Positions 43,973-62,564 of a stretch of 64,000 bases of DNA are shown here, piece by piece. Made by a program: the position numbers and the translations under genes. The stretch's first letter is position 1; every line of letters starts with the position of its first letter. Origin of the DNA: an uncultured Gammaproteobacteria bacterium (GTDB lineage: Bacteria; Patescibacteriota; Microgenomatia; UBA10105; UBA927); contig CAYUKU010000001.1 of NCBI GenBank assembly GCA_964445435.1, positions 118,942 through 182,941 on the forward strand, given 5' to 3'. Under the pieces are notes generated by a model. It did not search any database and was not told the origin of the DNA. It saw only the letters and a program-made list of their open reading frames with translations.

Positions 43973-44025
43973 ACCAGGAATGCTTCAAAGCATATCATAT
44001 CACCCAGCAGGATCGCAAAGCAGAA

Positions 44026-44054
44026 TTGACACTCCCCACCTCTTGCCATACACT
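44026..44054 (+). promoter_or_regulatory. Putative sigma-70-like promoter for pilin array (TTGACA-17 bp-TACACT)
   Basis: Perfect -35 hexamer at 44026-44031, 17-bp spacer, -10-like TACACT at 44049-44054, ending 6 bp before the first pilin ATG (possible leaderless or very short leader). Confidence 0.3.
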
Positions 44055-44060
44055 TATGGT

Positions 44061-44369
44061 ATGGAGCGTGTTTACGCGGCAGTTAATATCGAGGAGGTTT
44101 TCCCGCCCGCCGAAAATTTCAACCAAATAGGGCCCCTGGTGTCCGTTATCGTAAAAAACGCCTTTATGCTTGCCGGCGTCATTACGCTTGTATTGATCGT
44201 TTTGGGGGGATTTGGGATAATAGCTTCTGCCGGAGGAGATACCAAGAGGCTTGACCAGGGTAAAAAAACAATTACCGGCGCAGTGGTCGGTCTTCTGGTC
44301 ATTGTAGGATCTTTCTGGATCGTCCAGATAATCGAAACGCTCACCGGATTGACACTTATTCCGAAATAA
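44061..44369 (+). CDS. VirB2/TrbC-like pilin paralog 1 of tandem array
   Basis: Core LAGVITLVLIVLGGFGIIASAGGDTKRLDQGKKTITGAVVGLLVIVGSFWIV; start taken at MERVYAAV (ORF track 43980). Confidence 0.6.
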   Translation: MERVYAAVNIEEVFPPAENFNQIGPLVSVIVKNAFMLAGVITLVLIVLGGFGIIASAGGDTKRLDQGKKTITGAVVGLLVIVGSFWIVQIIETLTGLTLIPK

Positions 44370-44370
44370 T

Positions 44371-44721
44371 ATGGACGACATCGTCGGCAAAATAGATAAC
44401 CCGCTTCCCTCAGCCTACAAAAACCTGGCCGGATCGGCCGGACAGGCGGGGGGACTTATTCTTTTCTTCTCCAACGTCCTTCGGCTGGTGTTTGTGATCG
44501 CGGGCATTTACGCATTCATCAACTTCATTATCGCAGGCTACACCTACATGAGCGCGGGCGGAGACTCCAAATCCATCGCAAGTGCGTGGGCGCGCATCTG
44601 GCAGACGCTTCTTGGACTCGTCGTTGTTGTTGGATCATTTGCCATCGCGTCTCTTATGGGACAGCTTATTTTCGGTGACCCGCAGTATATTCTCAATCCG
44701 ACACTATACGGACCCAAATAA
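44371..44721 (+). CDS. VirB2/TrbC-like pilin paralog 2
   Basis: Core IAGIYAFINFIIAGYTYMSAGGDSKSIASAWARIWQTLLGLVVVVGSFAIA; 1-bp spacing from previous gene. Confidence 0.6.
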   Translation: MDDIVGKIDNPLPSAYKNLAGSAGQAGGLILFFSNVLRLVFVIAGIYAFINFIIAGYTYMSAGGDSKSIASAWARIWQTLLGLVVVVGSFAIASLMGQLIFGDPQYILNPTLYGPK

Positions 44722-44724
44722 TCT

Positions 44725-45096
44725 ATGGCAACAGGGGGACAACCATTAGGACCAATTGGCGGCGAGGGGCTTGGCCCGTTTGGCAATATCGGGAAGTCGT
44801 CCGATAAATATGCAGGTATTACCAGCGCCCTTGACACTGTCAGCTCTATTGTCGGATTTATGACTATCGTTGCCGGCATCTGGTTTCTGTTTATGCTTCT
44901 TTTTGCCGGATACGAGTGGATTTCCGCAGGCGGCGATACGAAAAAAATCGGAAGTGCGCGAGACCGCATCACCCATGCGTTTACCGGACTGGTTATCGTC
45001 GTAGGCGCCTGGAGCTTGCTTGCGGTTGCCGGACAATTTTTCGGCTACGATATTCTCGTCAACCCGAGAGACGTCATTAATAATTTAGGGCTCTAA
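44725..45096 (+). CDS. VirB2/TrbC-like pilin paralog 3
   Basis: Core VAGIWFLFMLLFAGYEWISAGGDTKKIGSARDRITHAFTGLVIVVGAWSLL. Confidence 0.6.
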   Translation: MATGGQPLGPIGGEGLGPFGNIGKSSDKYAGITSALDTVSSIVGFMTIVAGIWFLFMLLFAGYEWISAGGDTKKIGSARDRITHAFTGLVIVVGAWSLLAVAGQFFGYDILVNPRDVINNLGL

Positions 45097-45100
45097 ACTT

Positions 45101-45457
45101 ATGGAACACACGCTTTTGGCACAACTAAGAAACCCGGTCCTCCCTAACATCATCGGCGGAGGGAACACGCCAGATTACAAAACCGGCGGCACCGCCCTGG
45201 GAAGCCTTGTAAGCAGCATCATAGGAGCACTTTTTATCGCAGGTTTTTTGCTTGCGTTTTTCATGCTTCTGCAGGGCGGCCTTAAATGGATTACCGCCGG
45301 AAGCGACAAAACCAAACTTGAGGGCGCGCGTGATGCAATCACAAATTCTATCATCGGCATTATCGTCGTGGGGGCTGCATACGGAGTCACTGTGGTTGTG
45401 GCGAGATTTTTCGGACTGGAACTCGAGTCGCTTCCTATCCCGTCCATAACGCAGTAA
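45101..45457 (+). CDS. VirB2/TrbC-like pilin paralog 4
   Basis: Core IAGFLLAFFMLLQGGLKWITAGSDKTKLEGARDAITNSIIGIIVVGAAYGV. Confidence 0.6.
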   Translation: MEHTLLAQLRNPVLPNIIGGGNTPDYKTGGTALGSLVSSIIGALFIAGFLLAFFMLLQGGLKWITAGSDKTKLEGARDAITNSIIGIIVVGAAYGVTVVVARFFGLELESLPIPSITQ

Positions 45458-45494
45458 CGCTTGTGAAACGTCGGGGTTGACAATGCCGACAAAA

Positions 45495-45523
45495 TTGCGC
45501 AACAATGAGAAGTAAGCTATAAT
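45495..45523 (+). promoter_or_regulatory. Putative internal promoter within pilin array (TTGCGC-17 bp-TATAAT) followed by consensus SD AAGGAGG
   Basis: Perfect -10 TATAAT at 45518-45523 with 17-bp spacer from TTGCGC; the intergenic gap before paralog 5 is the only long one in the array; SD AAGGAGG at 45538-45544, ATG at 45551. Confidence 0.45.
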
Positions 45524-45550
45524 ACGCGGTGTAGCGTAAGGAGGATTCAT

Positions 45551-45880
45551 ATGAAGGTTTTCGCAGCAGATCCGCAAATCACCATCAAGCAGCCGACAAA
45601 CATCAAAATCGGCGACGTCGGACAGCTTATTTCTGCAGTGGTCGGAACCCTCCTTATTATCGCGGCACTCCTTGCGTTCTTCTACCTTATTCTCGGTGGT
45701 ATCCAATGGATAACCTCCGGCGGTGATAAGGCAGGCATGGAAGCCGCCCGCAATAAGATTACCCACGCGATCGTCGGACTGATCATCGTGGGAGCAGCTT
45801 GGGCCATCATGCTTCTCGTCCAGAACTTCCTGGGCGTGACGATCATCGGCGGGCAGCTCAACTTCCCGACGCCGTTTTAG
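45551..45880 (+). CDS. VirB2/TrbC-like pilin paralog 5
   Basis: Core IAALLAFFYLILGGIQWITSGGDKAGMEAARNKITHAIVGLIIVGAAWAIM; strongest RBS of the array. Confidence 0.65.
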   Translation: MKVFAADPQITIKQPTNIKIGDVGQLISAVVGTLLIIAALLAFFYLILGGIQWITSGGDKAGMEAARNKITHAIVGLIIVGAAWAIMLLVQNFLGVTIIGGQLNFPTPF

Positions 45881-45904
45881 CAAGAGTCGTGCTACAATAG
45901 GCTC

Positions 45905-46249
45905 ATGAACTTCTTGTCGAAATTCCCTTCTTTTTTCGTGCACGCGTCGCAATTGGGGAACCTCGAAGACACGGACGTGGCGACCATTCAGTCCCTTGAG
46001 ACATTGTTTGCCAATTTCGTCAAAACGATTGTCGCGCTTGCGGGAGTAGCGCTATTTATCATGTTTGTCGTTGCAGGATTCACGTATCTGTTTGCCGGAG
46101 GGGATGCCAAGAAATCAGAACAAGCCCGCGGAACGCTCTCAAATGCCGTCATCGGTCTCGTCGTCGTCGTTGCCGCGTATCTTATCGTCAGAATCATCAG
46201 CGTCTTTACCGGTGTCCCTGAGGTCTTGCAGTTTGCCATACCAAAGTAA
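45905..46249 (+). CDS. VirB2/TrbC-like pilin paralog 6
   Basis: Core LAGVALFIMFVVAGFTYLFAGGDAKKSEQARGTLSNAVIGLVVVVAAYLIV. Confidence 0.6.
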   Translation: MNFLSKFPSFFVHASQLGNLEDTDVATIQSLETLFANFVKTIVALAGVALFIMFVVAGFTYLFAGGDAKKSEQARGTLSNAVIGLVVVVAAYLIVRIISVFTGVPEVLQFAIPK

Positions 46250-47806: not shown

Positions 47807-50800
47807 TCACGAATGACCGCCACCGCCACCCGCGCCTGAAGCATCCTGCACGCCCTTCTTTGCACTTCCAAATGCACCCATAGCAAGAAGCGCGCCTCCG
47901 ATAAGCACGAACGCATACGCATTATATAAGCGCACGGTCTTGAATCCTGCAATCTGAATCCCGAACTTCCGGTGCATTTTGTGGGTAAAGTCAGGCATGT
48001 GAGTATGAAACTTCGTCTCCAATGCCGCCTCTACCTCGTGCTCGAGATGGTCCAAATCCACCCGACCCATGGCCGGTGCTCCTTGCCCTACCGCGCGCTG
48101 AGCCGCAGAAAGATCCATCGTCGTTCGATCATCACTAATACCTGATAAGTCGGCCCACAAATCTTTCACAACGGCCTGACGCCAACCATAGAACAACGTC
48201 TGCCCGACCGGTGCCTTGGCGCCCTCATAGCCACCGCTGAAGAGAATCGTGTCCACAAACGGCTTGAAATGCTGCATGAATGTCTTGCCATCCTTGGCGC
48301 CCAGTATGCCGATAAGGTCCTTCGCCATGGCATTCACTGAGTTTTGCGTATCTCCGGCCCAGCGCGGTAATCCGCCACCCGCACCGTGACCGCCCCGCAC
48401 TGAACTGATACGACCGGACCATTTGAGTTCCTTGCGTTGATGATCGGGATTATTGTCCTTAATGCCGTCCAGAAATTTGATACGCGGGTCGATCGTGTTC
48501 ACGGTCGTGAAATGAGCGGCGTACGCGGGATTTGCAAGATCTTCGATAATATGGGGATTGAGAGCAAAATCCGATGCGGCCTTCATCACATCCAGGTACG
48601 CTTTTACGTTTTCTTCTGGCGTAAGACTGCTGTCGCCCGTGGCGACACAAACTTTTTTAAGTGCGGCCTGTTCATGCGGCGAATAGACGCTCATATCTCC
48701 ATTCCACTTGGAGTAGTCAATCGGCCCTTGCGGCGTTTCTATCAGTTTTCCCCCGCTCCATTCGCGGGTAAGCGCAAGCTCAGTGTCTACCATCGCCCGT
48801 CGCATTTCGGCAGCCTTGATGGCTCCCCGCACAAACTGTTCCGGATTATTCGCGTTATAGACAAGATTCTCGCCCATTGCCGCATCGTGGAACCGGCTGA
48901 ACAGTGCGGAATTTGTGGAAAACCATTCAAACGTCTTCTCATGCATCTTTTGAGCAAGCGCATCGATGCTTGCGATGGGATCAAACTTCCCCATTAAGAC
49001 GAATGTCTTGGTTTTGAGTGTCACCTCTGCATCATGAAACTTCTTATGATCTCCCGCAGTATCAAACAGGCCGCCTGCGTCCAGACGAGCCGTCTCGTGG
49101 AGCAGAACTCCATTCGTCATGCCGGTATCTGCGTCAACGACTTTATAGAGACCAAAGTCCTTGAGAGCATCGATCTGCGACCCTATTTGCCAACCGGAAT
49201 CTATGTAATGATACGCTCCTGAGAACCGGGCGTCCAAGAGCCGTCGCCCTTCCCGATAGATAATCTGCTCCTCCAAATCAGCCTTCGTCAGCTCTGAAAG
49301 CGTCTGGGGAGTTTGTCGTTGCAATCCCTCCCGAGTTCCGCCAAAGAGCTGACGCAGAAAACTGTCCTCTCTTCGTATGCGCAATGAGCCAAACGCTCGT
49401 GCGACTGTCGCCTGATCATCCAGATCGTTGATGTTGAAAGCCATTTTCACCAGACGGTTCCATTCCGCCTGCGCCGCCCGCCCCTCGGGTGTAGGCAAAT
49501 TCCGTATTTTGTCAAGCTGACCTAACCGCGCGCGCCAATACGTATCGAGACCCACCCGTGATGCTTCCACGGCAAACATCTTTCGCATGACGAGGGCACC
49601 GAAATCGCTCTTAATCGCCCACCGATCTACCAGCCATTTAAACGGGTTCATCGAGAAAATGATTTTTCCCTCTGCCGGTTGGCCAGCAAACTCAAGCGGA
49701 TTTCCACTCTGGTGCATCATCTCAATCGGGGTAGCGGCTTTGCCGAAGATCTGTGCGCGCTGACCAGTGGCTTCGATAAGCATCGAAACTTCTCTCACGG
49801 CCATCTCTATGTCCGTCTTCTCAATTCTACGCCGTATGATGCGTCCGTTTTCATCTTTTCTCACGTCTCCATTTGTGTCGTATTCAACGCTTCCTTCCCA
49901 CTCCTGAAACCGGTCATTATACATCCCCTTTTGAGTTTGAGCGTGTGCCCACATTTGATCGACTATTGCGTCTTCCATCACTTCAATTCTCCCTGCTGTT
50001 AACGCACGGATGTATCCGTTCTCATCCCAAATTTCTGCCGCAAAGCGCTGTTTAAACACGCCAAACACCTCAAGATTGAGTCCGTTACGCTCATTTAACG
50101 TGCGCGGATACCCCTCGTCGCCGAAAATCGCGTAAACGCTCTTAAGCTTGTCCATCTCCGTATCAAGCTCAAGGCCTCCTTTTAAACGCAATAGCGCGCC
50201 GCGGATAGAAATAGTTCTGGAGATCTCTTTATTCCATTCAAGATACCCCTCGTTCATTTCCCTGTACCACTTATGATTAGTGTTGAGGACGCGGTTGCCA
50301 TCGCTGTCCAAAACCGGACTTCCATCAGGACGGACTTGGTAGATCGACTCTCCGCTTATTTGCGTAATCTCATCCCAGTTTCTCGGATCCCTCAAGTAAG
50401 CGAGGCGATTTTTGCGGTAATCATCGCTTGCGGCGTATTGAATAAGCTGAGAGTAATTGCGGTCAGCGGCCTCTTCCCACTTTCCTTCAAAAACGTTCAC
50501 AGTGGCGTTTATGAAATCCTGCTTGCTTCTGGCAAACACATCCACCCCGCGCCATGACCGCTTCATTTCTTCCAGAGAAAGGTATAAGCTGCTCCATCCC
50601 CGCTCAAGCTCACGCTCGGTGTACCGTTCCCTTCCAACACTAAGCGCCGTCTCCCGGAATGTTTCATACTTTTGGGCCAACTCCGGCTGGTCCGCCATGA
50701 GCCGTCTCCATGTATAGCTATCAGTATTGTGGTCCTGCATGGCAGTCATAAAATCAAAAATCTCATTTCGTACCCGCGGATCGTTCATGTTCCCGTGAGC

Positions 50801-52078
50801 ATCATGAAGGATTTTGTTGAAATGCTCCAGGCGGGATTTGAGATTTCGTGCCGCTACCCGCTCGGCAGGAATTGCCCTTGGACCTGCCACTTTATCCAGA
50901 TACTTTAACGCACCCGCGCTAAATTCATCGCCTCCGGGCGCTCTGCGCCTCGCACCACGCGCTCTTCCGCGCCCCCGACTCGTCCCAGCGGTGCCGATTG
51001 CCTCAAGCGCATCCTCAGCCCGATCGCCAAACTCGGGACTCACCTCATCGTGGTACATCTGGGCGACCTTCTCGGCGAAGCGTTTACGGAACGTATCACG
51101 CTCGCGCACCTGCTCATCAGTTGATCCCTGCCCGAGCGCCTTAATCTGAGAGCCCTTGGCAAGCAAAAACTCCTTGGTCCACGCATCTTCGCCGGCCTGT
51201 GCAATGTCATACACAACCTGCGCAATATCGGGATCTTTTATCAGCTCGCCATCAGAAACCAACCAGGATAATTCATTCGTCGTTCGTATTGTTTCTTGTA
51301 TCTTCCGATTCGCTTCGGCAGGTTCAACCGTACGCGTAATTTCCGGTCCCAACTTAAAGTCATCTAGAATCTGCGTCTCCAGATCCTCCGCCCACGCTTG
51401 GGTGTTCTCGGGATGCGCGCTGTGTGCGTGGTAATACACTGCCTGCTCGTCTTTCGTAATGCGCTCCACGCTTGCGCCCTTAAACGCCGGGTCATTTTTC
51501 ACGACTTCATCAAACCTCTTTCCTGAAGAGCCCTTAATCGCATCCCAATTGCGATATCCCCATTCGTACGCCGCCTGCCGCACTTCTCGCAAAACCATCT
51601 GATCCGACTCGCTTAGAGTCGTCATCTGCGGCATGTCTTTGAGGATGGTGCGCACCTTCGTCCATTCCTCTGCGCTGGGCGTGCTCCAGTTAATTTCCGG
51701 CGGCTGTTTATTCGGCGAAAGGCGGCTGATGCCGCCCAAAAGCCGCTGGTTATCTATAGGAACCGACGCGCGGAACTGATCTGACACGAGTACCGTCATC
51801 TTCTGCTCCGCAGAAAGCGGAGATCCCGCCTCTTGTCCGGCACGGATCATGGCTTTGCGGACAACTTCCGTATCCTGAACTTTGGGCTGGGTTTCTCCTT
51901 TGGTTTGAGGCGAGACATCAGGAGCTTTTTTTGGTTCTACTTTCTTCCCTCGTTCTTTCGCCTTTGCCTGGGTATTTGCGGTTGCAGCTTCCGCCTGCAC
52001 GACCATCGGAAGCGGTTTGTTTTTCCCCGCGTTTTCAAAAAGCGATTTCAGTGCATCGAAGAGTTCTTTTGACGCCAT
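47807..52078 (-). CDS. Giant (1423 aa) tail-anchored hypothetical protein, no recognisable domains
   Basis: Single uninterrupted 4.27 kb ORF; Arg/Gly-rich patch SRGRGRARGARRRAPGG; single C-terminal TM helix LYNAYAFVLIGGALLAMGAF followed by a Gly-run; downstream of T4CP-like gene and nadD on the same strand. Confidence 0.6.
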   Translation of the reverse strand: MASKELFDALKSLFENAGKNKPLPMVVQAEAATANTQAKAKERGKKVEPKKAPDVSPQTKGETQPKVQDTEVVRKAMIRAGQEAGSPLSAEQKMTVLVSDQFRASVPIDNQRLLGGISRLSPNKQPPEINWSTPSAEEWTKVRTILKDMPQMTTLSESDQMVLREVRQAAYEWGYRNWDAIKGSSGKRFDEVVKNDPAFKGASVERITKDEQAVYYHAHSAHPENTQAWAEDLETQILDDFKLGPEITRTVEPAEANRKIQETIRTTNELSWLVSDGELIKDPDIAQVVYDIAQAGEDAWTKEFLLAKGSQIKALGQGSTDEQVRERDTFRKRFAEKVAQMYHDEVSPEFGDRAEDALEAIGTAGTSRGRGRARGARRRAPGGDEFSAGALKYLDKVAGPRAIPAERVAARNLKSRLEHFNKILHDAHGNMNDPRVRNEIFDFMTAMQDHNTDSYTWRRLMADQPELAQKYETFRETALSVGRERYTERELERGWSSLYLSLEEMKRSWRGVDVFARSKQDFINATVNVFEGKWEEAADRNYSQLIQYAASDDYRKNRLAYLRDPRNWDEITQISGESIYQVRPDGSPVLDSDGNRVLNTNHKWYREMNEGYLEWNKEISRTISIRGALLRLKGGLELDTEMDKLKSVYAIFGDEGYPRTLNERNGLNLEVFGVFKQRFAAEIWDENGYIRALTAGRIEVMEDAIVDQMWAHAQTQKGMYNDRFQEWEGSVEYDTNGDVRKDENGRIIRRRIEKTDIEMAVREVSMLIEATGQRAQIFGKAATPIEMMHQSGNPLEFAGQPAEGKIIFSMNPFKWLVDRWAIKSDFGALVMRKMFAVEASRVGLDTYWRARLGQLDKIRNLPTPEGRAAQAEWNRLVKMAFNINDLDDQATVARAFGSLRIRREDSFLRQLFGGTREGLQRQTPQTLSELTKADLEEQIIYREGRRLLDARFSGAYHYIDSGWQIGSQIDALKDFGLYKVVDADTGMTNGVLLHETARLDAGGLFDTAGDHKKFHDAEVTLKTKTFVLMGKFDPIASIDALAQKMHEKTFEWFSTNSALFSRFHDAAMGENLVYNANNPEQFVRGAIKAAEMRRAMVDTELALTREWSGGKLIETPQGPIDYSKWNGDMSVYSPHEQAALKKVCVATGDSSLTPEENVKAYLDVMKAASDFALNPHIIEDLANPAYAAHFTTVNTIDPRIKFLDGIKDNNPDHQRKELKWSGRISSVRGGHGAGGGLPRWAGDTQNSVNAMAKDLIGILGAKDGKTFMQHFKPFVDTILFSGGYEGAKAPVGQTLFYGWRQAVVKDLWADLSGISDDRTTMDLSAAQRAVGQGAPAMGRVDLDHLEHEVEAALETKFHTHMPDFTHKMHRKFGIQIAGFKTVRLYNAYAFVLIGGALLAMGAFGSAKKGVQDASGAGGGGGHS

Positions 52079-52705: not shown

Positions 52706-54892
52706 TTATTTATTCACCTTCTTGGCATACCGCTCGCGGGAGGAGCGGATGACTTTTTCTCTATTCTGGTTTCTGCTTCTGGGAAGGGGCAATGTCTTCG
52801 CAGAAAACGGCGAACTCGTGTGATTGTCAATTGACAGCTTCATGACGACCTCATAGTTACCCATCGCCACGAGCTCGTTTTCCTCATACTTCTCGCCGAA
52901 TTCCCGCGACAGAATCCGTGCGTCTGCCGCGCCCACCCCAAAGGAAACAATGGATCCCGCGTTGCCGAATATCGCCTTCTGGACATCTTCGTCAATCTGA
53001 CCAATATACTGGTTTGCAAGCGTCAAATCCAGGCGGTATTTACGCGCCTCGGAGAGAATTTTTATAAATGATGTGGTGGCGAAATTCTGAAACTCGTCAA
53101 CGTACAGATAAAAGTCGCGCCGCTCCCCTTCTGCCAGATATACGCGGTTCATAGCGGCAAGCTGCATTTTCGTGATGATCATGGCCCCCAGAAGCGCACT
53201 GCTGTCTTCTCCGAGCTTGCCTTGAGACAAGTTTACGAGAACTATCTTCCCCTGGTTCATCATGCTCTCAAGATCAACTGTTGACGTGGGGCTTCCGACG
53301 ATATTTCTGATTGTTTGTGATGAGAGAAACTGCCCGACCTTGTTGAGAATCGGCGACACTGCTTCTGAGCGCATTTGTGGCGACATTTTCGCAAACTCAT
53401 TGAGCCAGAAATTTTTGAGAACCTGGTCTGCCATCTTCTCAACGACCTTGCCGCGGTATTTTTCGTTGGTGAGAAGCTCGGGCACCTGAAGAAGCGTCGA
53501 ATTGGGAACATTCGTAAGGGTCAGAATGGTATTTCTCAGAATATATTCGAGCCGCGGCCCCCAGCTTAGGTGGTACAGTTTGTAAAAAATCGAAACGATG
53601 CCGCTACTGACCAGCTCGCGATAGGCCGTGTTTCTTACTTCCAGCGGATTCAGGTGAAATGGATACTCAATATCTGATGGGTCCAAATACGCAACGTCGT
53701 TAATGCGGTGCGATGGCACGTAATCCAAGAGGATATCCGTTAAGTCACCGTGAGGGTCGACGACGGCCACCCCTTCGCCGTTTTTCATGTCATTGATCGC
53801 CATATTGGCGATCATCGTTGATTTACCGGTACCCGTCTTTCCGACGATATACACATGTTTCCTGCGGTCTGCCTTCTTGATGCCAAATGTGGCGAGCTTG
53901 TTTTTGTATTCCGTGCGTCCGAAGAAGTTAATCTGCTTTTTCTCTTCCTCATTGTCCGTTGCCACGGGCAGATTCTCCGGAGCCTCACCGGTCAACTGGG
54001 AACCCCAGGAGATATTTTTAATCATGGAAAGCGCAAGTCCCGGCGGATGCCAGAGGGAGGCAAGCTCACTGGCGTTGAGAACCTGGAATCGGGGCGCAAC
54101 TGAACCGTTTCTCTCCACAAAGCCCTGTTCGAGTTTTTTCTTCTGCCAGAACGCGGGCTCGCTGATCACCAATCCGTTTCCCTCTCCCAACGTGTACACC
54201 CCAAACGTCCCACCCACTCCGTGAAGCAGCTCGTTTGCACGCGCGTCGGAGGCGGCCACCGACACGAGCCGAATTGCCGTTCCAAAACCAACCTGGGCGA
54301 TTTTGGTCTCAATGAGGCGCGCATGGGGATGGGCCTTCATGCGACCCGTCGTTGATGACGTGTCGGGAACTCCCCTTGCAACAATCGCGGAAGCCGAATG
54401 CTGCCAATTGGTTCCTGCCGGAGTAATGCGAAACTGGATAGCGACCGCCTCCCCAACCGGAAGCTTGGCCAGCTGTCCCAGAAGGCTTGCCAGAATATCC
54501 AAGTCTTTTACGTCTTTGTACGTTTTGAGAGGATAGTAGTACGCATTGGATAAGACGACCTGTGCAATCTTATGCGGAAGGGCGAGAAAGTGCGGCGCGT
54601 AATCCTCAACCGGCGCCAAAAGCACTTTCGGGTATTGCGCGGTCAGTTGACTCTCCACATACGTCTGGAGTGACGAAGGTACGCCGACGAAAAAATGAAT
54701 CCGCGAGTTGACGGCAACCAGCTCAAAACTGAAATACTTCGGCGCATGACGGGGACGAAACAACATGGAAAGAAACCCGCCATGGCCACCTCCGGCGCCT
54801 AGCGCGGCAAAAATCTGCTCCATTGCGGCAGGCGTTTCTTCTGAGTCGCGGCTATTTTTTACTTCCAGAAGCACAAACGGAGATTCCGTCAT
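52706..54892 (-). CDS. VirD4/TraD/TrwB-like type IV coupling protein-like ATPase (FtsK/HerA superfamily)
   Basis: Walker A IVGKTGTGKST...VVDPHGD; C-terminal block ILSEARKYRLDLTLANQYIGQIDEDVQKAIFGNAGSIVSFGV resembles the TrwB_AAD/T4CP DNA-binding ATPase motif; no obvious N-terminal TM (atypical for T4CP). Confidence 0.55.
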   Translation of the reverse strand: MTESPFVLLEVKNSRDSEETPAAMEQIFAALGAGGGHGGFLSMLFRPRHAPKYFSFELVAVNSRIHFFVGVPSSLQTYVESQLTAQYPKVLLAPVEDYAPHFLALPHKIAQVVLSNAYYYPLKTYKDVKDLDILASLLGQLAKLPVGEAVAIQFRITPAGTNWQHSASAIVARGVPDTSSTTGRMKAHPHARLIETKIAQVGFGTAIRLVSVAASDARANELLHGVGGTFGVYTLGEGNGLVISEPAFWQKKKLEQGFVERNGSVAPRFQVLNASELASLWHPPGLALSMIKNISWGSQLTGEAPENLPVATDNEEEKKQINFFGRTEYKNKLATFGIKKADRRKHVYIVGKTGTGKSTMIANMAINDMKNGEGVAVVDPHGDLTDILLDYVPSHRINDVAYLDPSDIEYPFHLNPLEVRNTAYRELVSSGIVSIFYKLYHLSWGPRLEYILRNTILTLTNVPNSTLLQVPELLTNEKYRGKVVEKMADQVLKNFWLNEFAKMSPQMRSEAVSPILNKVGQFLSSQTIRNIVGSPTSTVDLESMMNQGKIVLVNLSQGKLGEDSSALLGAMIITKMQLAAMNRVYLAEGERRDFYLYVDEFQNFATTSFIKILSEARKYRLDLTLANQYIGQIDEDVQKAIFGNAGSIVSFGVGAADARILSREFGEKYEENELVAMGNYEVVMKLSIDNHTSSPFSAKTLPLPRSRNQNREKVIRSSRERYAKKVNK

Positions 54893-55106
54893 GAGGCTAT
54901 AGTATCACAAAAATCGCAGGCTACGAGCTGCGTAAATAAGGGGCGAGAGAATAATTTGAAAGGCAACTGCGCGTTTGCGTGGCTTATCTTATGTTGCCCG
55001 TATATGAAACGCGCATTTAACGAGGATGGGATAGGCTTCCGCGATAAAACGAGGTCGCCAAGTGGGTCTTTGCAAATTCTTTCGCTCGCCCCTTTTAAAA
55101 ACCTTT

Positions 55107-55135
55107 CGTGAAAACTGAAAATGAGAGTTTTCACG
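55107..55135. promoter_or_regulatory. Perfect 10-bp inverted repeat (CGTGAAAACT-n9-AGTTTTCACG) in divergent T4SS promoter region
   Basis: Located in the 325-bp gap between the divergently transcribed T4CP-like gene and the PrgI-like gene, about 85 bp upstream of the PrgI-like ATG; candidate operator. Confidence 0.3.
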
Positions 55136-55218
55136 ATTCTGATGCGCTTTGTGCTATTGCGCTCGCGTCAAAATTACCCCAAAATAGTACTACCAGCCGA
55201 TAGTGCGGAGTTCTGTCT

Positions 55219-56631
55219 ATGGAACAACATCCGGTACCACAAAACGTCACCACATTTCAGTTTCGACTGATCGGCGACATGACCATTAAACAGTTCGGCT
55301 ATCTGGCCGGAGGAGCAATCTTGGCGTATATCTGCTATAAGCTCCCGCTGCCGTTTTTCTTCACCTGGCCCATGGCAACGATAGCAGCTCTCGCAGGTGT
55401 TGGATTTGCGTTCGTTCCGGTCGAGGAACGCCCAATGGACATCTGGGTCATGTCGTTCATAAAAAACGTCTACAACCCGACGCAATTTGTGTGGGAAAAA
55501 ACAGCCGAACCTCCAAAGCCCGCCCCCGCGGCTCCCCCAGCACCTCGACCTGTTGTTGCGCCGCATCCAAAACCAACCATGGGAACACCCGCACCCTCTG
55601 CGGTTTCCCACGCACAGCCTCAAGCTCCAGCCGCGCAAACAGGGCGCCAAGTCTCAGACGTCGTGGCGGGGATATTTACACAGCCAAAACCGACCCAGCC
55701 AATGCCAGCGCCCGTCGGGCAGACCGTGCCGACCCCTGCATATCATCCAAGCCAAACGGCAGGGAAAAAAGTTGGCCCCTTTGACTGGCTAGTCCGGCTA
55801 TTTGCACCAGCTGCGCGGCCCGCGACGAGCCCGCAACACGTGGTGCCCTATCAAAGCGCACCAACGTCGTTATCGGCTGCACCCTCAATTTCTGCTCCCT
55901 CGGTAACGGGCCGACATCTGGATCTCACGCCGCCGCCAAAAGTCGTTCCTACGGAAACGCAAATGGCAACGGTCCAAAAAAAGGAAACTGAGTTGGAAAC
56001 GAAACTTCAGGAACTGAAGGTAGAATTGGAAACCAAAACACAAACACAGGCGCGGGTGCTGGAACTGCAAAAACAGCTGACCGATATGCTCTCTGAGCGA
56101 GATCGCATGAGAAAAGAGCTCGAAGCGCTTCGCGCCAAAGCGGCGCCTCCCCCTGCGCCAACCGCCGTCGTACCGCCGAAGCCGGCAGACACAAATACGG
56201 TTGTCTCGACACCCCCTCCGCAAACTGCCGCAGCGCCCCAACGACCACAGGGTCCGACGGTCAAAATAATTACGCCTCAGGAGGCGGTGAAAGCAGGGCT
56301 TCCGCGGCTCACCACATTTCCCAACGTTGTCACGGGCATCACGCGCGATTCGGACAACAACCTCCTCCCCGGCGTTCTTGTCACCGTCAAGGACCACGAC
56401 GGCGTGCCGGTGCGCGCCCTGAAAACAAACCGACTGGGACAATTTGCTGCTTCAACACCGCTGGGGAACGGGGTATATTTCGTGGAGATCGAAGACCCGC
56501 GAGGCCGCTACACATTTGACCGCGTGCAGATCACGCTCAATGGATCCATTGTGCCCGCTCTCGAAATCATCGCAAAAAGCCAAAAGGAAGTCGCCCGCGA
56601 AAGGCTCGCCAAGGAAATTTTCGGAAGCTAA
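55219..56631 (+). CDS. PrgI-like T4SS membrane protein with long Pro-rich linker, coiled coil and C-terminal beta-sandwich-like domain
   Basis: N-terminus FQFRLIGDMTIKQFGYLAGGAILAYICYKLPLP matches the PrgI-family motif and two-TM topology; then about 150 aa Pro/Ala-rich low complexity, a coiled coil (about 250-300) and a C-terminal about 110-aa domain. Confidence 0.55.
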   Translation: MEQHPVPQNVTTFQFRLIGDMTIKQFGYLAGGAILAYICYKLPLPFFFTWPMATIAALAGVGFAFVPVEERPMDIWVMSFIKNVYNPTQFVWEKTAEPPKPAPAAPPAPRPVVAPHPKPTMGTPAPSAVSHAQPQAPAAQTGRQVSDVVAGIFTQPKPTQPMPAPVGQTVPTPAYHPSQTAGKKVGPFDWLVRLFAPAARPATSPQHVVPYQSAPTSLSAAPSISAPSVTGRHLDLTPPPKVVPTETQMATVQKKETELETKLQELKVELETKTQTQARVLELQKQLTDMLSERDRMRKELEALRAKAAPPPAPTAVVPPKPADTNTVVSTPPPQTAAAPQRPQGPTVKIITPQEAVKAGLPRLTTFPNVVTGITRDSDNNLLPGVLVTVKDHDGVPVRALKTNRLGQFAASTPLGNGVYFVEIEDPRGRYTFDRVQITLNGSIVPALEIIAKSQKEVARERLAKEIFGS

Positions 56632-56632
56632 T

Positions 56633-57292
56633 ATGGTACAAAAAATTATTCCCATAAGATCGACAACCCAACTGTTCGTTGAAATTGAAACGATCGACCA
56701 CGACATAGTCGTATATCAGGATGGCTCGGCCAGCCTCGTCATCACCACAACAGCGGTTAACTTTGGCCTTCTGTCTGAGCGGGAACAGGACGCAATCATT
56801 ACCGCATACGCGGGACTTCTTAATTCGCTGTCCTTCCCCATTGAGATTCTTATACGCACGCAGCATAAAGACGTGACTGCATACCTGCGGCTTCTGGAAG
56901 AACAGGAACGCAAACAGAAAAACCCCAAGCTCCAAAAAAGTATCCATGACTACCGGCTGTTCGTGGCAGCAACTGTCAAGGAGAAGGATGTACTAGATAA
57001 GAAATTCTATATCATCATTCCGTTTTCGAACCTGGAGCTGGGAGCTTCCCCAACTGTATTGTTCGGCAGCAAGAAGAAAGGCCTGCCATATCCACTCTCA
57101 TATATTTTCGAACGCGCATTGACCGTCCTCAACCCGAAACGCGACCATATCCTACGACTTCTTAACCGCGTCGGACTTCAAGCAAGTCAATTGACAAACC
57201 AACAGCTGGTAAAGCTCTTTTTTACAACCTATAACGCGGGGGTTCCATTGCCCGATGACGAAACAGTAACCCACGCGCTTACCCGTACATGA
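56633..57292 (+). CDS. Hypothetical T4SS-associated protein (220 aa), possibly VirB4 N-terminal-domain-like
   Basis: Starts 1 nt after PrgI-like stop and ends 1 nt before VirB4 ATG; no ATPase motifs; ORF-track N-terminal extension (from 56444) overlaps the PrgI-like gene and is rejected. Confidence 0.45.
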   Translation: MVQKIIPIRSTTQLFVEIETIDHDIVVYQDGSASLVITTTAVNFGLLSEREQDAIITAYAGLLNSLSFPIEILIRTQHKDVTAYLRLLEEQERKQKNPKLQKSIHDYRLFVAATVKEKDVLDKKFYIIIPFSNLELGASPTVLFGSKKKGLPYPLSYIFERALTVLNPKRDHILRLLNRVGLQASQLTNQQLVKLFFTTYNAGVPLPDDETVTHALTRT

Positions 57293-57293
57293 T

Positions 57294-59216
57294 ATGAGCA
57301 TAAAAGCAGCACTCAGAAAAATCATTGACCCGATGCCGGAAGAGAAACCGGTCAATCAGACGGTACATACCGAAAACTTGACTGTGAAGGATATTATAGC
57401 CCCTCCCTCAATTGATGTAGACTTTGACCATCTGAAAATAGGCAATTACTACTACCGCACGCTCTTTGTGGCAGGGTACCCGCGGTTTGTAAGTGCCAAC
57501 TGGCTTGAGCCGCTTATCTCCTTCAACCATACGCTTGATATCGCCATGTATGTGTACCCAACCAGAAGTGAAGAGGTGTTGGAAAATCTGAAGCGTAAAG
57601 TGGGAGAAATGGAGGCGACCATCCAGTCCGACATGAAGCGCGGCAGAGTAATCGAACCGTCCATCCAGGTAGCCCTTGAAGACGCCCTTGCGCTTCAACA
57701 AGAGCTCGCCAAAGGAGCACAACGGTTCTTCCAGTTCGGACTCTATGTCACTATTCCCGCAAAAAGCCTGGACGACCTCAATAAGGCAACCAAGCAGGTC
57801 GAGGCAACGCTCGCCTCGCTTCTTATCGTCACCAAACGGGCAACGCTCCAGATGGAGGAGGGTCTCAAGACTACGCTTCCGATGGGCCAGGACCGTATCG
57901 TTATCACGCGAAACATGGACACCACGTCCCTGGCAACCACCTTCCCTTTCACGACAAGCGAGTTGACCGCAAACGAAGGAATCCTCTACGGGATCAACTC
58001 GCACAACGATAGCCTGGTGGTATTTGACCGGTTTACGCTCGAAAATGCCAACACCGTCGTCTTCGGAAAATCGGGCTCGGGAAAAAGCTACATGGTGAAA
58101 CTGGAAATCCTGCGAAGTCTCATGTTTGATACCGAAGTGATCGTCATCGACCCCGAGAACGAATACGAAACGCTTACGCGAGCGCTCGGCGGCGAGTATA
58201 TCCGGTTCCACTTCGGTACGAATACGAAAATCAACCCTTTCGACATCGCCCTTTTGCATCAAACCGGGTCGGGTCAGGGAGACAGCGAGCTGAATCAAAA
58301 AATACTTTCGCTTCATGGGTTTTTTCGTGTCGTTATGGGAAAACTGACACCCACGGAAGACGCGCTTCTTGATCGTGCGCTTATCCTTGCGTACAAACAA
58401 AAGGGCATAACGCCCGACCCCACCACACAAAGCAAAGAGCCTCCCCTGATGGAAGATCTTTATAAAACGCTCGTTGGCATGGAGGATTCGATTGCGCGGG
58501 GGCTTGCCGATCGCATTGAAAAATTCGTAAAAGGAAGCCTGGTTGGAATCTTCGATCAACAAACCAATGTGGCCATCAGAAACCAGCTCACCGTGTTCTC
58601 CATACGGGATCTCGAAGACGAACTTCGCCCGATTGCCATGTATCTTATCCTCGATTTCATCTGGACCAAGGTGCGCCGCGATACGAAACGCCGAATTCTC
58701 ATCGTTGACGAGGCGTGGTACATGATGAAATTCCCGGATTCCGGCGCCTTCCTCAACTCCATCGCCAAACGTGCACGCAAGTATTATCTTGGCCTTACGA
58801 CGATCACCCAGGACGTCGAAGACTTCCTTTCAGTCGAGCTTGGGAAAACAATCATCCAAAACAGCAGCTTGCAAATCCTCCTTAAGCAATCAACGGCGGC
58901 CATAGACCGCGTCGGAGAGGTGTTCTTCCTGTCTGAAGGGGAAAAACAACTTCTCCTGTCGGCAAACGTAGGGGAGGGGCTGTTTTTCGCAGGGCCCTCA
59001 CACGCCGCAATTCGCGTGATTGCCTCCCCACAGGAGCACGCCATTATAACAACCAAGCCGCAGGATTTGGCAGCACAGAGGGCCGCACAGAACGCACCCC
59101 GGTCTCCCGCGCCTTCCGGCACCATCGTGCCGGGCGCCGTCAAACCAACACCGCCAGCCTCTGGAACAACAAATAGACCCATCTTTACGGTAGAATCAGT
59201 AAACGGAGCGCAATAA
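57294..59216 (+). CDS. VirB4-family T4SS ATPase (Gram-positive TraE/PrgJ-like length)
   Basis: Walker A VVFGKSGSGKSYM, Walker B RILIVDEAWYMM, N-terminal YYRTLFVAGYPRFV...WLEPL block typical of VirB4/TraE; 640 aa. Confidence 0.8.
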   Translation: MSIKAALRKIIDPMPEEKPVNQTVHTENLTVKDIIAPPSIDVDFDHLKIGNYYYRTLFVAGYPRFVSANWLEPLISFNHTLDIAMYVYPTRSEEVLENLKRKVGEMEATIQSDMKRGRVIEPSIQVALEDALALQQELAKGAQRFFQFGLYVTIPAKSLDDLNKATKQVEATLASLLIVTKRATLQMEEGLKTTLPMGQDRIVITRNMDTTSLATTFPFTTSELTANEGILYGINSHNDSLVVFDRFTLENANTVVFGKSGSGKSYMVKLEILRSLMFDTEVIVIDPENEYETLTRALGGEYIRFHFGTNTKINPFDIALLHQTGSGQGDSELNQKILSLHGFFRVVMGKLTPTEDALLDRALILAYKQKGITPDPTTQSKEPPLMEDLYKTLVGMEDSIARGLADRIEKFVKGSLVGIFDQQTNVAIRNQLTVFSIRDLEDELRPIAMYLILDFIWTKVRRDTKRRILIVDEAWYMMKFPDSGAFLNSIAKRARKYYLGLTTITQDVEDFLSVELGKTIIQNSSLQILLKQSTAAIDRVGEVFFLSEGEKQLLLSANVGEGLFFAGPSHAAIRVIASPQEHAIITTKPQDLAAQRAAQNAPRSPAPSGTIVPGAVKPTPPASGTTNRPIFTVESVNGAQ

Positions 59217-59219
59217 TCC

Positions 59220-61535
59220 ATGGCCACACAACAACAGTCTCCCCTGCCGCTTTCGGACTTTCTTTCAGAGGTAGTCCGGGCAATTGACGATCACCAGGAA
59301 GTATCTCTTGCCGCCATACTTGCTCACGCGGAAGAATATCAGGAACTACGGGATTTCATGCTTAAGAATCCCGAATGGGTGGCAGGGGTTATGATCGAGG
59401 AGCCGAAGGATGGGCTTGCAAAAATTCGGGAACTTTTTTCCGACCCGAAAGAAATTCTTGCTCAAATCGCCCCCCGCGGCGCTGAGGGACTCTCCCAATT
59501 CGTCGAACCAGAAGCACGGTTTGCGCAGAGCCTTCCGATCGGAGAGGTAACGCCAGCACGGGAAAAAGCATGGGAAGACCTTATCACGCACGATCGGGCA
59601 CTTTTGGCAAAAAAGGTCGCCAAAACGAGAAAAACCACCCAGGAATTCTTTCATAAGATCCACACCATCCGCGCGTATGGCACCCCGGAGGCCGCAGAAG
59701 AAATGAAGAAAGTGGAGCATGAAGTACATCTCAAAAACTTCGAAGAAATACGTAAAGAGCTTATAGAAATCGCGCGAAAACGCGGCAACAAAGAGGATGT
59801 AAAAGAAGCGGAAGAAATTATCGAACGTTTCGTGCCGCAAATAACATCAGAGGACCTCACGGAACCAATTCGTCTGGCTACCGCCACCTCCAAAACAGTA
59901 CTTGAACACCCGGATGTGGAAAACACCGTTATCATCGCTGAATCCATCGAGCGCGGAGACGCCGCGCGTGATGCCGTACGACTTTCCCGTATCGCCACGG
60001 CCATTGAGCACCCGGTGCAAAACGTGCGCGAGATTCCTCTGAGGGCAGCGTTTGAAGACGTGGCGGGAACCGTACTTCCGAACACTCAAGACGTAGTAGA
60101 CCGGATCTTTTCCAATACGTGGCGCGCCACGACAACAGCCGAGTCCTTCGTCGGCAACATGACGCAGCGTCTCGGAGAAGAAGCGGTAAACAGTCCTGAA
60201 TTTAAAGGCCTTATAGAACGGGGAAACGCATATGCAAGACAACGGTCAGCGTCTGGTGGAAATGTGCTAAGCGGATTGTTTTCCATACCCAAGGAGCCGG
60301 ATCCGGATATGGAGGCCTACCTTGAGGCCGTCTATAAAAAAGTCGGCGGAGGGGAATTCGGCAGCAATGATTTCTTTGCGGGCAAAGCCTACGCCAATCA
60401 TCCGGATCATTTCCACTTCGAATTCGAATCACCCTTCAATATACTATTCCGATTCGGCGCAAGGGAAGAAGCGGCCACGGTTGCGCGCGGCACTGCCGGA
60501 GCAGTAACCCGGACCGGTCTGGGTGCATGGACAAAAGAGTCTATCAAAAAACTCGGAGCGAATTTTCTCGCTAAATTCGGAATACAGGCTGGCGGCAAAC
60601 TCGCGGCTGTTCTCAGCGGACCGGTTGGATGGGTTATTTTCGCCGTTACCATCGTATTGCCGTACGTATGGGACTGGGTAAAACGCGCCGGCGGCAAGAT
60701 CATGAGCGCAGTCGGCGGAGGCATCATCGGTGGCGTGAGAGCGGCAAGCGAAGGGTTTGCAGCGAGCTGGGCGGCGTTTCTGCAAACATACGCAAAATAC
60801 AAGGACCCGGTGCCAACCTGGGTTGTCATTGCTGCCATGGTAGCCTCCCCTGTTTTGATTGCACTTCCGATAACATCGCTTTTTCCTTCAACCGCAAGCC
60901 AAACACAAGTCAGAAGAGCAGCAGTGCTCTCGGTTGGGGGCGGCGGGGTTGTGCCCGTCCCCCAGGCGTGTGACCCGGCAACAGATCCCACGTGTGTGCC
61001 GCTATTCTGCGACCCGTCCAAACAAAGCTGTGAGTGGCCCACGCCGTGCGGGTGCATCACTCAGGGGCCCAATTCTGGGGGGTCACACTCGGGACTCAAT
61101 GCAATCGACATCGGAACAAACGGCGGCGCGTGCAGCCAATCGTATGATGGAAACCCGCCAAGTAGTCCTCCAGTATACGCCGCGTGTGCGGGAACGATCA
61201 CCCGCGCGTATTTCGGACTCGGAGACGGAGAAATTTGTAAAGACTTCCGAAGTGCGAAGTGCGGATACGGATATGGCAACAACGTATATCTCAATTGCAC
61301 CGACGGGAAAACACAATTTATCTATGGCCATCTCCTCAAACCCGGCCCCGGAATTTCACAGGGGGCATCCGTACAGCAAGGGCAAGTCCTCGGGTATGTT
61401 GATAACAACGGCAACTCTACCGGACCTCACCTTCATTTCGAATATCGCGGAGTAAACGGCGCCAGCGTACAGGATATTACAAAAATTCTCCCGCCCGAAT
61501 ACGCACTCGGGTATTGCTGGTCGGGAGGAAGATAA
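59220..61535 (+). CDS. T4SS-associated cell-wall hydrolase: large protein with two TM helices and C-terminal M23 (LytM-type) peptidase domain
   Basis: C-terminal HSGLNAIDIG (H-x-x-x-D) and GPHLHFEYR (HxH) M23 zinc-binding motifs; central TM helices; 771 aa; functional analog of VirB1/PrgK/TcpG-type hydrolases. Confidence 0.7.
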   Translation: MATQQQSPLPLSDFLSEVVRAIDDHQEVSLAAILAHAEEYQELRDFMLKNPEWVAGVMIEEPKDGLAKIRELFSDPKEILAQIAPRGAEGLSQFVEPEARFAQSLPIGEVTPAREKAWEDLITHDRALLAKKVAKTRKTTQEFFHKIHTIRAYGTPEAAEEMKKVEHEVHLKNFEEIRKELIEIARKRGNKEDVKEAEEIIERFVPQITSEDLTEPIRLATATSKTVLEHPDVENTVIIAESIERGDAARDAVRLSRIATAIEHPVQNVREIPLRAAFEDVAGTVLPNTQDVVDRIFSNTWRATTTAESFVGNMTQRLGEEAVNSPEFKGLIERGNAYARQRSASGGNVLSGLFSIPKEPDPDMEAYLEAVYKKVGGGEFGSNDFFAGKAYANHPDHFHFEFESPFNILFRFGAREEAATVARGTAGAVTRTGLGAWTKESIKKLGANFLAKFGIQAGGKLAAVLSGPVGWVIFAVTIVLPYVWDWVKRAGGKIMSAVGGGIIGGVRAASEGFAASWAAFLQTYAKYKDPVPTWVVIAAMVASPVLIALPITSLFPSTASQTQVRRAAVLSVGGGGVVPVPQACDPATDPTCVPLFCDPSKQSCEWPTPCGCITQGPNSGGSHSGLNAIDIGTNGGACSQSYDGNPPSSPPVYAACAGTITRAYFGLGDGEICKDFRSAKCGYGYGNNVYLNCTDGKTQFIYGHLLKPGPGISQGASVQQGQVLGYVDNNGNSTGPHLHFEYRGVNGASVQDITKILPPEYALGYCWSGGR

Positions 61536-61550
61536 GGCTATACTGATACT

Positions 61551-62564
61551 ATGCGACTGTCCACAAAAACGATAACGATCATTGGAATATTCGTCGTCAC
61601 GCTTTTGGTGGCTTTTTGGCTTGCAGCTCGACAAGAAAAACCGACTACAAAAACACCCTCTCCCTCCCCCAACACAGGGACAGCGCCCAGAGAAATTCCT
61701 GCGCTTATTTCCGGTCCTATCCAAAATAAGCAGCCGTCGGTCCGATTTGTCTTGTCATTCCCACCAATATCCGTCCCGGAAACGCTTCCTGTTTACTCAA
61801 CAAAGGAGCCAGACATGACCGCGTCGTGGACTACCATTGCCCAAAATCTCGGTTTCTCGGGGCCCGGCACGAGCCCGAAAGACCAGCCAACCATGCGCTG
61901 GTGGATAAATTCCGCCGGCACTCTAAAAGTATATTCATCTCCCCCCAGTGTCGCGTTTACCGCGCAACGGGATCTTGTCGGCCCTCCAACAGAGATTGAG
62001 GCCAATGGTGCCCTTTCAGCGTTTGTTTCCAAAACGGGCATTCTTGGCGGAGCAGTAAGCTTCGTCCCGACCCCGGTCCAATATGTGACAGTGGAAGGGT
62101 CAAGCTATCTTCCCGCTGCTGACAAAACGAAAGCGTCTATGGCAATCGCGTCGCTCGACTATCGAATCAACAACATGCCGCTGTATGCCGCATCAGGACT
62201 TCCGTATGAGGCTGTGGGACAGGTGCATGCGGGCGGAACGCTTCGCTCTGCCATGGTCCCTGCGCCGCCAATTATCCTGTCCTCCGCAGAAAAGCAAACC
62301 ATTGCTCTTTCTGCAGCCGCAACGCACTTATCAAACAACAGGGGAACCCTTGTCAGTATCCGCGCTTCGACGCCGGGAGAAACCTCGATAAGTGAAATCA
62401 ATTTCTCGACCGTACTTATCACGAAGGCGTCACTTGTATATCTTTATGTGAACAGGGCGGAACAAATCCTTCCGGTCTATCTTTTTGAGGGAAGCGTTAC
62501 AAGCGGAGAGGGAGACTCCCGCGGGGCCGTTGCCGCATTCTTCGTGCCTGCAACGTATAATTAA
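61551..62564 (+). CDS. Membrane-anchored extracytoplasmic protein, hypothetical (last gene of T4SS-like operon; VirB8-like topology)
   Basis: N-terminal TM IGIFVVTLLVAFWLAA, Pro/Thr/Ser-rich linker, about 270-aa soluble domain. Confidence 0.45.
   Translation: MRLSTKTITIIGIFVVTLLVAFWLAARQEKPTTKTPSPSPNTGTAPREIPALISGPIQNKQPSVRFVLSFPPISVPETLPVYSTKEPDMTASWTTIAQNLGFSGPGTSPKDQPTMRWWINSAGTLKVYSSPPSVAFTAQRDLVGPPTEIEANGALSAFVSKTGILGGAVSFVPTPVQYVTVEGSSYLPAADKTKASMAIASLDYRINNMPLYAASGLPYEAVGQVHAGGTLRSAMVPAPPIILSSAEKQTIALSAAATHLSNNRGTLVSIRASTPGETSISEINFSTVLITKASLVYLYVNRAEQILPVYLFEGSVTSGEGDSRGAVAAFFVPATYN

Follow-up and report, generated by a model that had tools for sequence, protein, structure and literature searches.

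A 375-residue C-terminal extension on PrgI/VirB3-family proteins of Patescibacteria type IV secretion systems

In type IV secretion systems (T4SSs), canonical PrgI/VirB3 subunits are small (10–15 kDa, about 117–122 residues) with short extensions at their termini, and VirB3 has been described as a protein with two transmembrane (TM) helices and a C-terminal helix, its N and C termini being short and cytoplasmic (PMC12857230). In the structure of the R388 system VirB3 wraps the N-terminal domain of the cytoplasmic VirB4 (VirB4central; PMC9259494), and natural VirB3–VirB4 fusions exist in which VirB3 is N-terminal to VirB4 (PMC12624023). A 2025 survey of Patescibacteria T4SSs found PrgI/VirB3 homologues to be widespread and mentioned no extension (PMC12102498). 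Here we describe prgI-ext, a gene within a 64-kb stretch of contig CAYUKU010000001.1 (the window, which refers throughout to the whole 64,000 nucleotides analysed). Judged from its sequence, prgI-ext encodes the VirB3/PrgI subunit of a chromosomal, origin-proximal Patescibacteria (Gottesmanbacteria-type) T4SS, and 375 residues of its product lie past the PrgI domain. The extended PrgI is widespread and already filed in databases; the extension is new to the literature searched, no description of it having been found in the open-access papers and bioRxiv preprints covered.

Architecture and spread of the extended PrgI

The gene is one uninterrupted ORF (open reading frame) of 470 residues with an ATG start and a stop codon at 56629–56631, and its product is identical to an NCBI protein (P0001). 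In order, the product comprises a PrgI/VirB3 domain, a Pro/Ala-rich linker, a coiled coil, a second Pro-rich linker and a beta-sandwich. We modelled it with AlphaFold2 (AF2) using a 113-sequence alignment, which gave a mean predicted local distance difference test (pLDDT) score of 70 and a score above 90 over the final 125 residues. The parts, each with the evidence that defines it, are as follows.

55219..56631, + strand: prgI-ext, a VirB3/PrgI-family protein with a C-terminal extension (ORF list, full-length homologues, identical NCBI protein)
55219..55503, + strand: PrgI/VirB3 domain, residues 1–95 (PF12666, invariant columns, alignment to a canonical 122-residue PrgI)
55285..55341, + strand: TM helix 1, residues 23–41 (hydropathy; AF2 helices 23–41 and 10–41)
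55354..55413, + strand: TM helix 2, residues 46–65 (hydropathy; AF2 helix 46–65)
55432..55473, + strand: amphipathic helix after TM2, residues 72–85 (AF2; invariant residues)
55504..55950, + strand: linker 1, Pro/Ala-rich, residues 96–244 (composition, length and charge statistics, low pLDDT, alignment)
55951..56142, + strand: coiled coil, residues 245–308 (AF2 helices 246–272 and 277–308; heptads; weak family and PDB matches)
56143..56253, + strand: linker 2, residues 309–345 (composition, length statistics, AF2)
56254..56628, + strand: C-terminal domain, residues 346–470, a transthyretin/CnaB/CarboxypepD_reg-like beta-sandwich plus C-terminal helix

An earlier note, made from the letters of the window, had called the N terminus PrgI-like and named a profile search as the result that could overturn this; the search upheld it. 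In particular, Pfam PF12666 matched residues 5–88 with 32.6 bits against a gathering score of 27 (E = 1.2e-7, profile positions 1–87 of 91). Consistent with this assignment, a canonical 122-residue 'PrgI family protein' encoded on a plasmid of Miltoncostaea oceani, the only such annotated protein found by tblastn against plasmids, aligned by BLASTP over residues 21–104 with 31% identity (pairwise E = 2e-11), and it stops about where the extension of prgI-ext starts. Hydropathy gives exactly two membrane segments, and hydropathy and the AF2 model together return the VirB3 pattern of two TM helices and a C-terminal alpha-helix (residues 23–41, 46–65 and 72–85), with a TM1–TM2 loop of 4–5 residues (K-L-P-L-P). 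The N-tail (residues 1–22) is nearly invariant in the family, as seen over the N-terminal 25 residues in alignments of 38 and of 113 sequences. The helix at residues 72–85, the counterpart of the 'C-terminal alpha-helix' of VirB3, sits in a conserved block (ERPMDxW...F...Y.PT..W) in which E69, R71, P72, D74, W76, F80, Y85, P87, T88 and W92 are invariant. Sequence searches of the PDB gave the N-domain no match to the solved VirB3 (TrwM), and a Foldseek search of the PDB with the N-domain model likewise returned no TrwM match and nothing below E = 3, a result that is uninformative for so small a helical hairpin. We regard prgI-ext as a variant of VirB3 because its sequence, helix pattern and synteny are those of VirB3, yet it is not a small protein.

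The remaining parts of the extension have the character that the earlier note gave them, namely a Pro/Ala-rich spacer, a coiled coil, and an Ig/carboxypeptidase-regulatory-like C-terminal domain. Linker 1 (23% Pro, 16% Ala) has one short modelled helix, at residues 189–195, and is otherwise disordered in the model; in relatives it is 81–187 residues long with a net positive charge (+5.8). Linker 2 (32% Pro, 19% Ala; 10–48 residues among relatives) is also modelled as disordered. Between relatives both linkers differ in length and sequence in the 38- and 113-sequence alignments, save for three short motifs in linker 1 (around residues 144–152, PFDWLxxLF at residues 186–197, and SVTGxHxDxxPPP at about residues 218–236). 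The coiled coil consists of two modelled helices (246–272 and 277–308) with a break at residues 273–276; 86–89% of the heptad a/d positions in both helices are hydrophobic, the conserved core reads RILELQKQLTE, and matches of residues 245–308 to coiled-coil families and the PDB are weak. A Pro-rich linker might be taken as proof of a segment that spans the cell wall, a reading we rejected. In the members inspected of a distant subfamily (subfamily 2, described below) the linkers are K/E-rich rather than Pro-rich, and a Pro-rich tail is not diagnostic of wall spanning because the Miltoncostaea system has a soluble TrsD-like protein with such a tail. This protein (337 residues; locus L078, plasmid NZ_CP064357.1, positions 5290–6303) has a low-complexity Pro/Arg-rich tail of about 110 residues and, as part of an actinobacterial PrgI–TrsD–VirB4-like cluster, provides a second case in which a component of the T4SS base has a disordered, Pro-rich tail.

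The C-terminal domain is confidently modelled as a beta-sandwich (residues 348–451) capped by a helix (455–468) that, in the prgI-ext family, ends in an invariant F-G. It has the seven strands of a prealbumin-like beta-sandwich, and its most conserved motif is RALKTNxLGQF. PF13620 (CarboxypepD_reg) matches prgI-ext with 22.3 bits, below the gathering score of 32.3, and a precomputed PF13620 match is present in many of its homologues. The lysine that would form a CnaB isopeptide bond, K349 in the first strand ('PTVKII'), is not conserved: several close homologues have Q in its place ('PTIQII'), in what was a check of conservation only.

The expansion, which the earlier note contrasted with canonical PrgI proteins of about 100–130 residues, is not special to this locus. 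A search with full-length prgI-ext gave 566 homologues; the best 120 of these are nearly all 350–520 residues long, most span the entire query, and they contain PF12666 and often PF13620. The PrgI domain, the coiled-coil core and the C-terminal domain are the parts strongly conserved in the 38- and 113-sequence alignments. With each GTDB species represented by one genome, a scan located the gene in 243 species, mostly Gottesmanbacteria and Microgenomates, and every match scored as partial proved on inspection to be a complete single ORF. A distant subfamily 2, with the N terminus MENHPIPQDVTGFQFKLIG, adds 1,627 further proteins with PF12666 and PF13620 in the same operon position. The comparison with PrgI homologues of other T4SS loci of the candidate phyla radiation (CPR), which the earlier note had proposed, thus finds the same extension in the 243 GTDB species and the 566 and 1,627 proteins, and in over 2,000 protein clusters. 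On the strength of these matches, the extended PrgI is the standard form in a very large Patescibacteria family and is not peculiar to this locus. Database names, where family members have any, are 'PrgI family protein', a label that in annotation pipelines hides the extension. (Note that taxonomic labels are unreliable here: many of the metagenome-assembled records with a Patescibacteria-type locus, L001–L076, are titled 'uncultured Gammaproteobacteria bacterium', and NCBI names in subfamily 2 include Acidoferrales, Xanthomonadales and Limnocylindrales.)

It is exceedingly improbable that the extension is an artefact, whether of a sequencing frameshift that joined prgI to a second gene downstream or of read-through into non-coding, low-complexity sequence. 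The earlier note had raised the prospect of a separate frameshifted gene; instead, the extended protein is a single ORF in 113 aligned homologues and in 72 loci, from independent assemblies that include closed chromosomes, and both the start (MEQHP) and the terminal FG are conserved. The family is indeed split on two metagenome contigs, and these are short (about 1.5 kb). In one (L081, Logan ERR14790944, a 1.6-kb contig) a frameshift at nucleotides 352–397 separates PrgI from the extension; in the other (L082, ENA k141_2953760) an in-frame TGA lies within TM2 at nucleotides ~296–298 (ALAG*AFAF), which reflects either a lineage that reads UGA as Gly (code 25) or an error. The C-terminal domain searched alone matched 1,587 representative clusters, 950 of them with E ≤ 1e-10. 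Newly listed representatives numbered 145, of which 125 contain the PrgI domain as well and 20 lack it. We considered these 20 as candidate stand-alone copies of the C-terminal module and rejected them. Eighteen are short, and the four that were looked up are all artefacts (P0224, a contig end; P0187, in L081, the frameshift; P0194, in L082, the in-frame TGA; P0121, a 1-kb contig that it nearly fills), so that no genuine split gene was found; the remaining two, giant repeat proteins, are unrelated.

Orientation and possible role of the extension

We propose, with a probability of about one half, that the extension is a cytoplasmic, oligomerising adaptor arm at the base of the T4SS. The hairpin would keep the topology of VirB3, with N and C termini both cytoplasmic, and the invariant N-tail and the helix after TM2 would clasp TrsD/VirB4, the products of the genes directly downstream. 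Since both ends of such a hairpin are cytoplasmic, the module would hang into the cytoplasm, one per copy of VirB3 and presumably in six copies (there are six per machine in R388). The coiled coil would pair or bundle with its neighbours to give a flexible, oligomerising arm, and a soluble partner would dock on the terminal beta-sandwich and the linker motifs. The partner we prefer, in what is the most speculative step, would be the VirD4-like ATPase encoded divergently next door, which has no TM segment by hydropathy (maximum Kyte–Doolittle (KD) value over 19 residues, KD19, 1.33); alternative partners would be the VirB4/TrsD barrel at its distal end, or substrates. Type IV coupling proteins (T4CPs) are generally placed at the inner membrane (PMC12102498), and the coupling protein of pIP501, TraJ, which has no TM helices, is proposed to be anchored by TraI, a small protein with two TM helices (PMC12857230). 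Tethering of VirD4 is the role we favour because the VirD4-like ATPase has no TM helix and because TraJ and TraI offer a precedent.

Because the hairpin has just two TM helices, the 375-residue tail must lie on the same side of the membrane as the N terminus; hydropathy revealed no third TM helix in 237 proteins and in 71 of 72 loci (about 310 members). Members of the family have about 5 K and R residues on the side of the termini versus 0.8 in the loop, and this bias is positive in 98% of the 237 members; the net positive charge of linker 1 points the same way. The canonical Miltoncostaea PrgI, with 'IKRKGRPIDDW' after TM2 and no K or R in the loop, is predicted to be clearly N-in/C-in. Moreover, the N-tail and the helix after TM2, which are all that is soluble in the PrgI domain, are conserved more strongly than any other part of the protein, a pattern that fits a retained contact with TrsD/VirB4. 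No signal peptide was found in the prgI-ext family. These findings suggest that the tail is probably cytoplasmic rather than extracellular. The earlier note had envisaged a stalk and tip projecting an extracellular binding domain; the order of parts that it gave stands, whereas two TM helices, the cytoplasmic termini of VirB3 and the K and R counts speak against outward projection.

Such an extracellular stalk is nevertheless the main alternative, and we consider it possible, though doubtful. The hairpin would be N-out/C-out, the Pro-rich linker would cross the wall, six coiled coils would form a collar or stalk, and the CnaB/transthyretin-like domains would make up a distal ring or host-binding tip that functionally replaces the VirB8 arches or VirB10/TonB-like connector absent from Patescibacteria. 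Several observations point this way and count against a cytoplasmic arm. Roughly 90% of the proteins that resemble the C-terminal domain in structure are extracytoplasmic (pilins, MSCRAMM B domains, the S-layer protein SlaB, the N-terminal extension (NTE) of SusC, carboxypeptidase D), and the domain's nearest sequence relatives from outside the family, giant proteins of many repeats, look like surface adhesins; one has an N-terminal hydrophobic, signal-like segment. The segment after TM2 (PVEERPMD) is acidic, leaving the net charge without a clear inside bias, and the hairpin loop usually contains one K in the family. Patescibacteria seldom have VirB8, their virB4 is not accompanied by VirB10 or other outer-membrane components, and an extracellular role is left unfilled where neither VirB8 nor VirB10 is recognisable (PMC12102498). 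The sole outlier in the hydropathy survey also belongs here: in L066 (CAZLDC010000001.1) a hydrophobic 19-mer, LISMLLGTAAAFIASLTAL, lies within linker 1 at residues ~127–145 (KD 2.02) and, if it is a real third TM helix, would place the C-terminal domain on the opposite side from the N terminus. Two further points bear on the proposed partner. We infer the VirD4 tether solely from synteny and the absence of a TM segment, and in Southlakia the T4CP is reported to be non-essential and PrgI essential (PMC12102498). An extracellular stalk would, however, require a reversed topology in a family that binds cytoplasmic VirB4 through its conserved soluble parts (PMC9259494, PMC12857230), and it would leave just the five-residue loop facing TrsD/VirB4. 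The K and R counts and the orientation predicted for canonical PrgI also argue against it, as do the absence of a signal peptide and of a third TM segment, the unconserved K349, and the linkers of the subfamily 2 members that were inspected. Furthermore, other products of the locus could already serve extracellular roles (a 337-residue bitopic protein, an M23-peptidase protein, a VirB6-like candidate, and pilins). The broader claim that VirB3 is inverted in much of Patescibacteria, its six extensions forming an envelope-spanning coiled-coil collar with surface-exposed CnaB/transthyretin-like domains that doubles as a VirB8/VirB10-type connector and host-contact element, seems to us rather unlikely; if true, an inverted VirB3 would belong to a T4SS that is essential for the epibiotic lifestyle, at least in Saccharibacteria.

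A cytoplasmic tail might also serve mainly in self-assembly or regulation. The coiled coils would then staple VirB3–TrsD–VirB4 protomers into a hexamer in a system that has no VirB11, or the tail would gate the entry of pilins or substrates with its beta-sandwich folded back on the ATPase barrel. The topology arguments apply here as they do to an adaptor arm, and the heptads of the coiled coil are conserved. T4SSs of Gram-positive bacteria have no VirB11 associated with them (PMC12857230), and the locus genes that were scanned with Pfam included none of VirB11 type. The module is also kept where virD4 is not adjacent: virD4 divergently adjoins prgI-ext in 57 of 76 loci, and the other 19, some of them on short contigs, have no adjacent match. 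However, the very high conservation of the RALKTNxLGQF surface motif and of the linker motifs suggests specific partners, and we consider a role mainly in self-assembly or regulation improbable.

In Patescibacteria T4SSs VirB8, VirB10 and VirB11 are missing or rarely detectable, and a conserved 375-residue module on VirB3 in thousands of lineages amounts to a sizeable uncharacterised part of the machine. If the tail is cytoplasmic, it would be a new docking arm that explains the recruitment of TM-less ATPases or substrates; if it is extracellular, an inverted VirB3 that builds a wall-spanning part would be without precedent.

The surrounding T4SS locus

The locus runs from six VirB2-like pilin genes through a VirB6-like candidate, a divergent VirD4-like ATPase gene, prgI-ext, a TrsD/TraC-like gene, virB4, and genes for an M23-peptidase membrane protein and a bitopic 337-residue protein to dnaN. 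The features other than prgI-ext are as follows.

43980..46249, + strand: six tandem VirB2-like T4SS pilin genes (109–129 residues; PF18895 matches)
46265–47794, + strand: polytopic membrane protein of 509 residues, VirB6-like candidate (no Pfam match; found in 31 of 76 related loci)
52706..54892, − strand: virD4-like coupling ATPase of 728 residues, divergent from prgI-ext (TrwB_AAD_bind, TraG-D_C, DUF87)
56633..57292, + strand: trsD/traC-like gene, soluble protein of 219 residues resembling the VirB4 N-domain (weak NCBIfam TrsD and VirB4_plasma matches; PF26593, TraC-like, on orthologues)
57294..59216, + strand: virB4 ATPase of 640 residues (PF19044, PF12846, PF01935)
59220..61535, + strand: membrane protein of 771 residues with a C-terminal M23 peptidase domain (PF01551; TM segments at residues 460–557)
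61551–62564, + strand: bitopic protein of 337 residues with an N-terminal TM helix at residues 2–29 (no Pfam family)
62569–63672, − strand: dnaN

TrsD and VirB4 follow prgI-ext directly in 75 of 76 loci, and the order is kept in subfamily 2 too. The part that resembles the N-domain of VirB4 is a separate gene in this locus (the TrsD/TraC-like gene), and its product has no TM segment by hydropathy. Spacers of a single nucleotide separate prgI-ext from trsD and trsD from virB4 (56631–57294), which suggests that the three genes are translationally coupled. A scan of the gene and the upstream intergenic region (54800–56700) for promoters and terminators gave one promoter-like match, not above chance expectation. 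The N-terminal ~330 residues of the VirD4-like protein have no confident family assignment.

Pilin gene arrays of the kind found here have been described (PMC12102498). The 771-residue M23 protein is a candidate VirB1-like wall hydrolase, and the 337-residue bitopic protein, which evolves fast (it is detectable in 13 of 76 loci), is a candidate VirB8-like or wall-spanning component. GC skew is negative in all 2-kb bins of the window (cumulative −2.58). The presence of dnaN fits a location close to the origin of replication, where Patescibacteria T4SS loci have been reported to lie. On the reverse strand at 47807–52078 there is also an ORF of 1,423 residues with no Pfam match and a single hydrophobic segment near its C terminus (residues 1387–1406). 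It is poorly conserved, with weak matches in 5 of 76 loci, and may encode a giant tail-anchored protein linked to the T4SS locus.

Comparison with known systems

In its order of parts (an anchor, a Pro-rich or coiled-coil spacer, and a globular C-terminal domain), and in its expected six-fold stoichiometry, prgI-ext resembles the VirB10/TonB connectors and VirB8/PrgL. Those proteins, however, have one TM helix, are C-out, and have beta-barrel, TonB C-terminal domain (CTD) or NTF2-like folds, none of which was among the fold matches listed for the C-terminal domain of prgI-ext. Unlike VirB10/TonB-like connectors, prgI-ext has two TM helices and neither fold, and unlike VirB8/PrgL it ends in an all-beta sandwich rather than an NTF2-like domain. 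The likeness to the SlaB S-layer stalk lies solely in the order of parts, which is reversed there relative to prgI-ext. From CnaB, CarboxypepD_reg and transthyretin domains the C-terminal domain differs in its sub-threshold PF13620 match, its unconserved isopeptide lysine, its additional conserved C-terminal helix, and the VirB3 hairpin to which it is attached.

TraI of pIP501 is, like prgI-ext, a two-TM protein of a monoderm T4SS whose T4CP has no TM helices (PMC12857230); it is a small protein and, within its own system, one other than the VirB3 homologue. Natural VirB3–VirB4 fusions are reported in some conjugative systems, and CagE is listed as the counterpart of VirB3 in the Cag system. 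As in prgI-ext, the C terminus of VirB3 in these fusions runs into a large module, and they show it to be cytoplasmic (PMC12624023, PMC12102498). The fused module in such proteins is the VirB4 ATPase, whereas in the prgI-ext locus VirB4 and TrsD are encoded by separate genes and the fused module is non-enzymatic. The closest relatives remain PrgI of pCF10 and VirB3 (PF12666), with which prgI-ext shares the conserved N-tail, the two-TM hairpin, the amphipathic helix, and a gene position directly upstream of the VirB4 module, and from which it differs in size, being a protein of 470 residues with 375 residues added to a typically small subunit.

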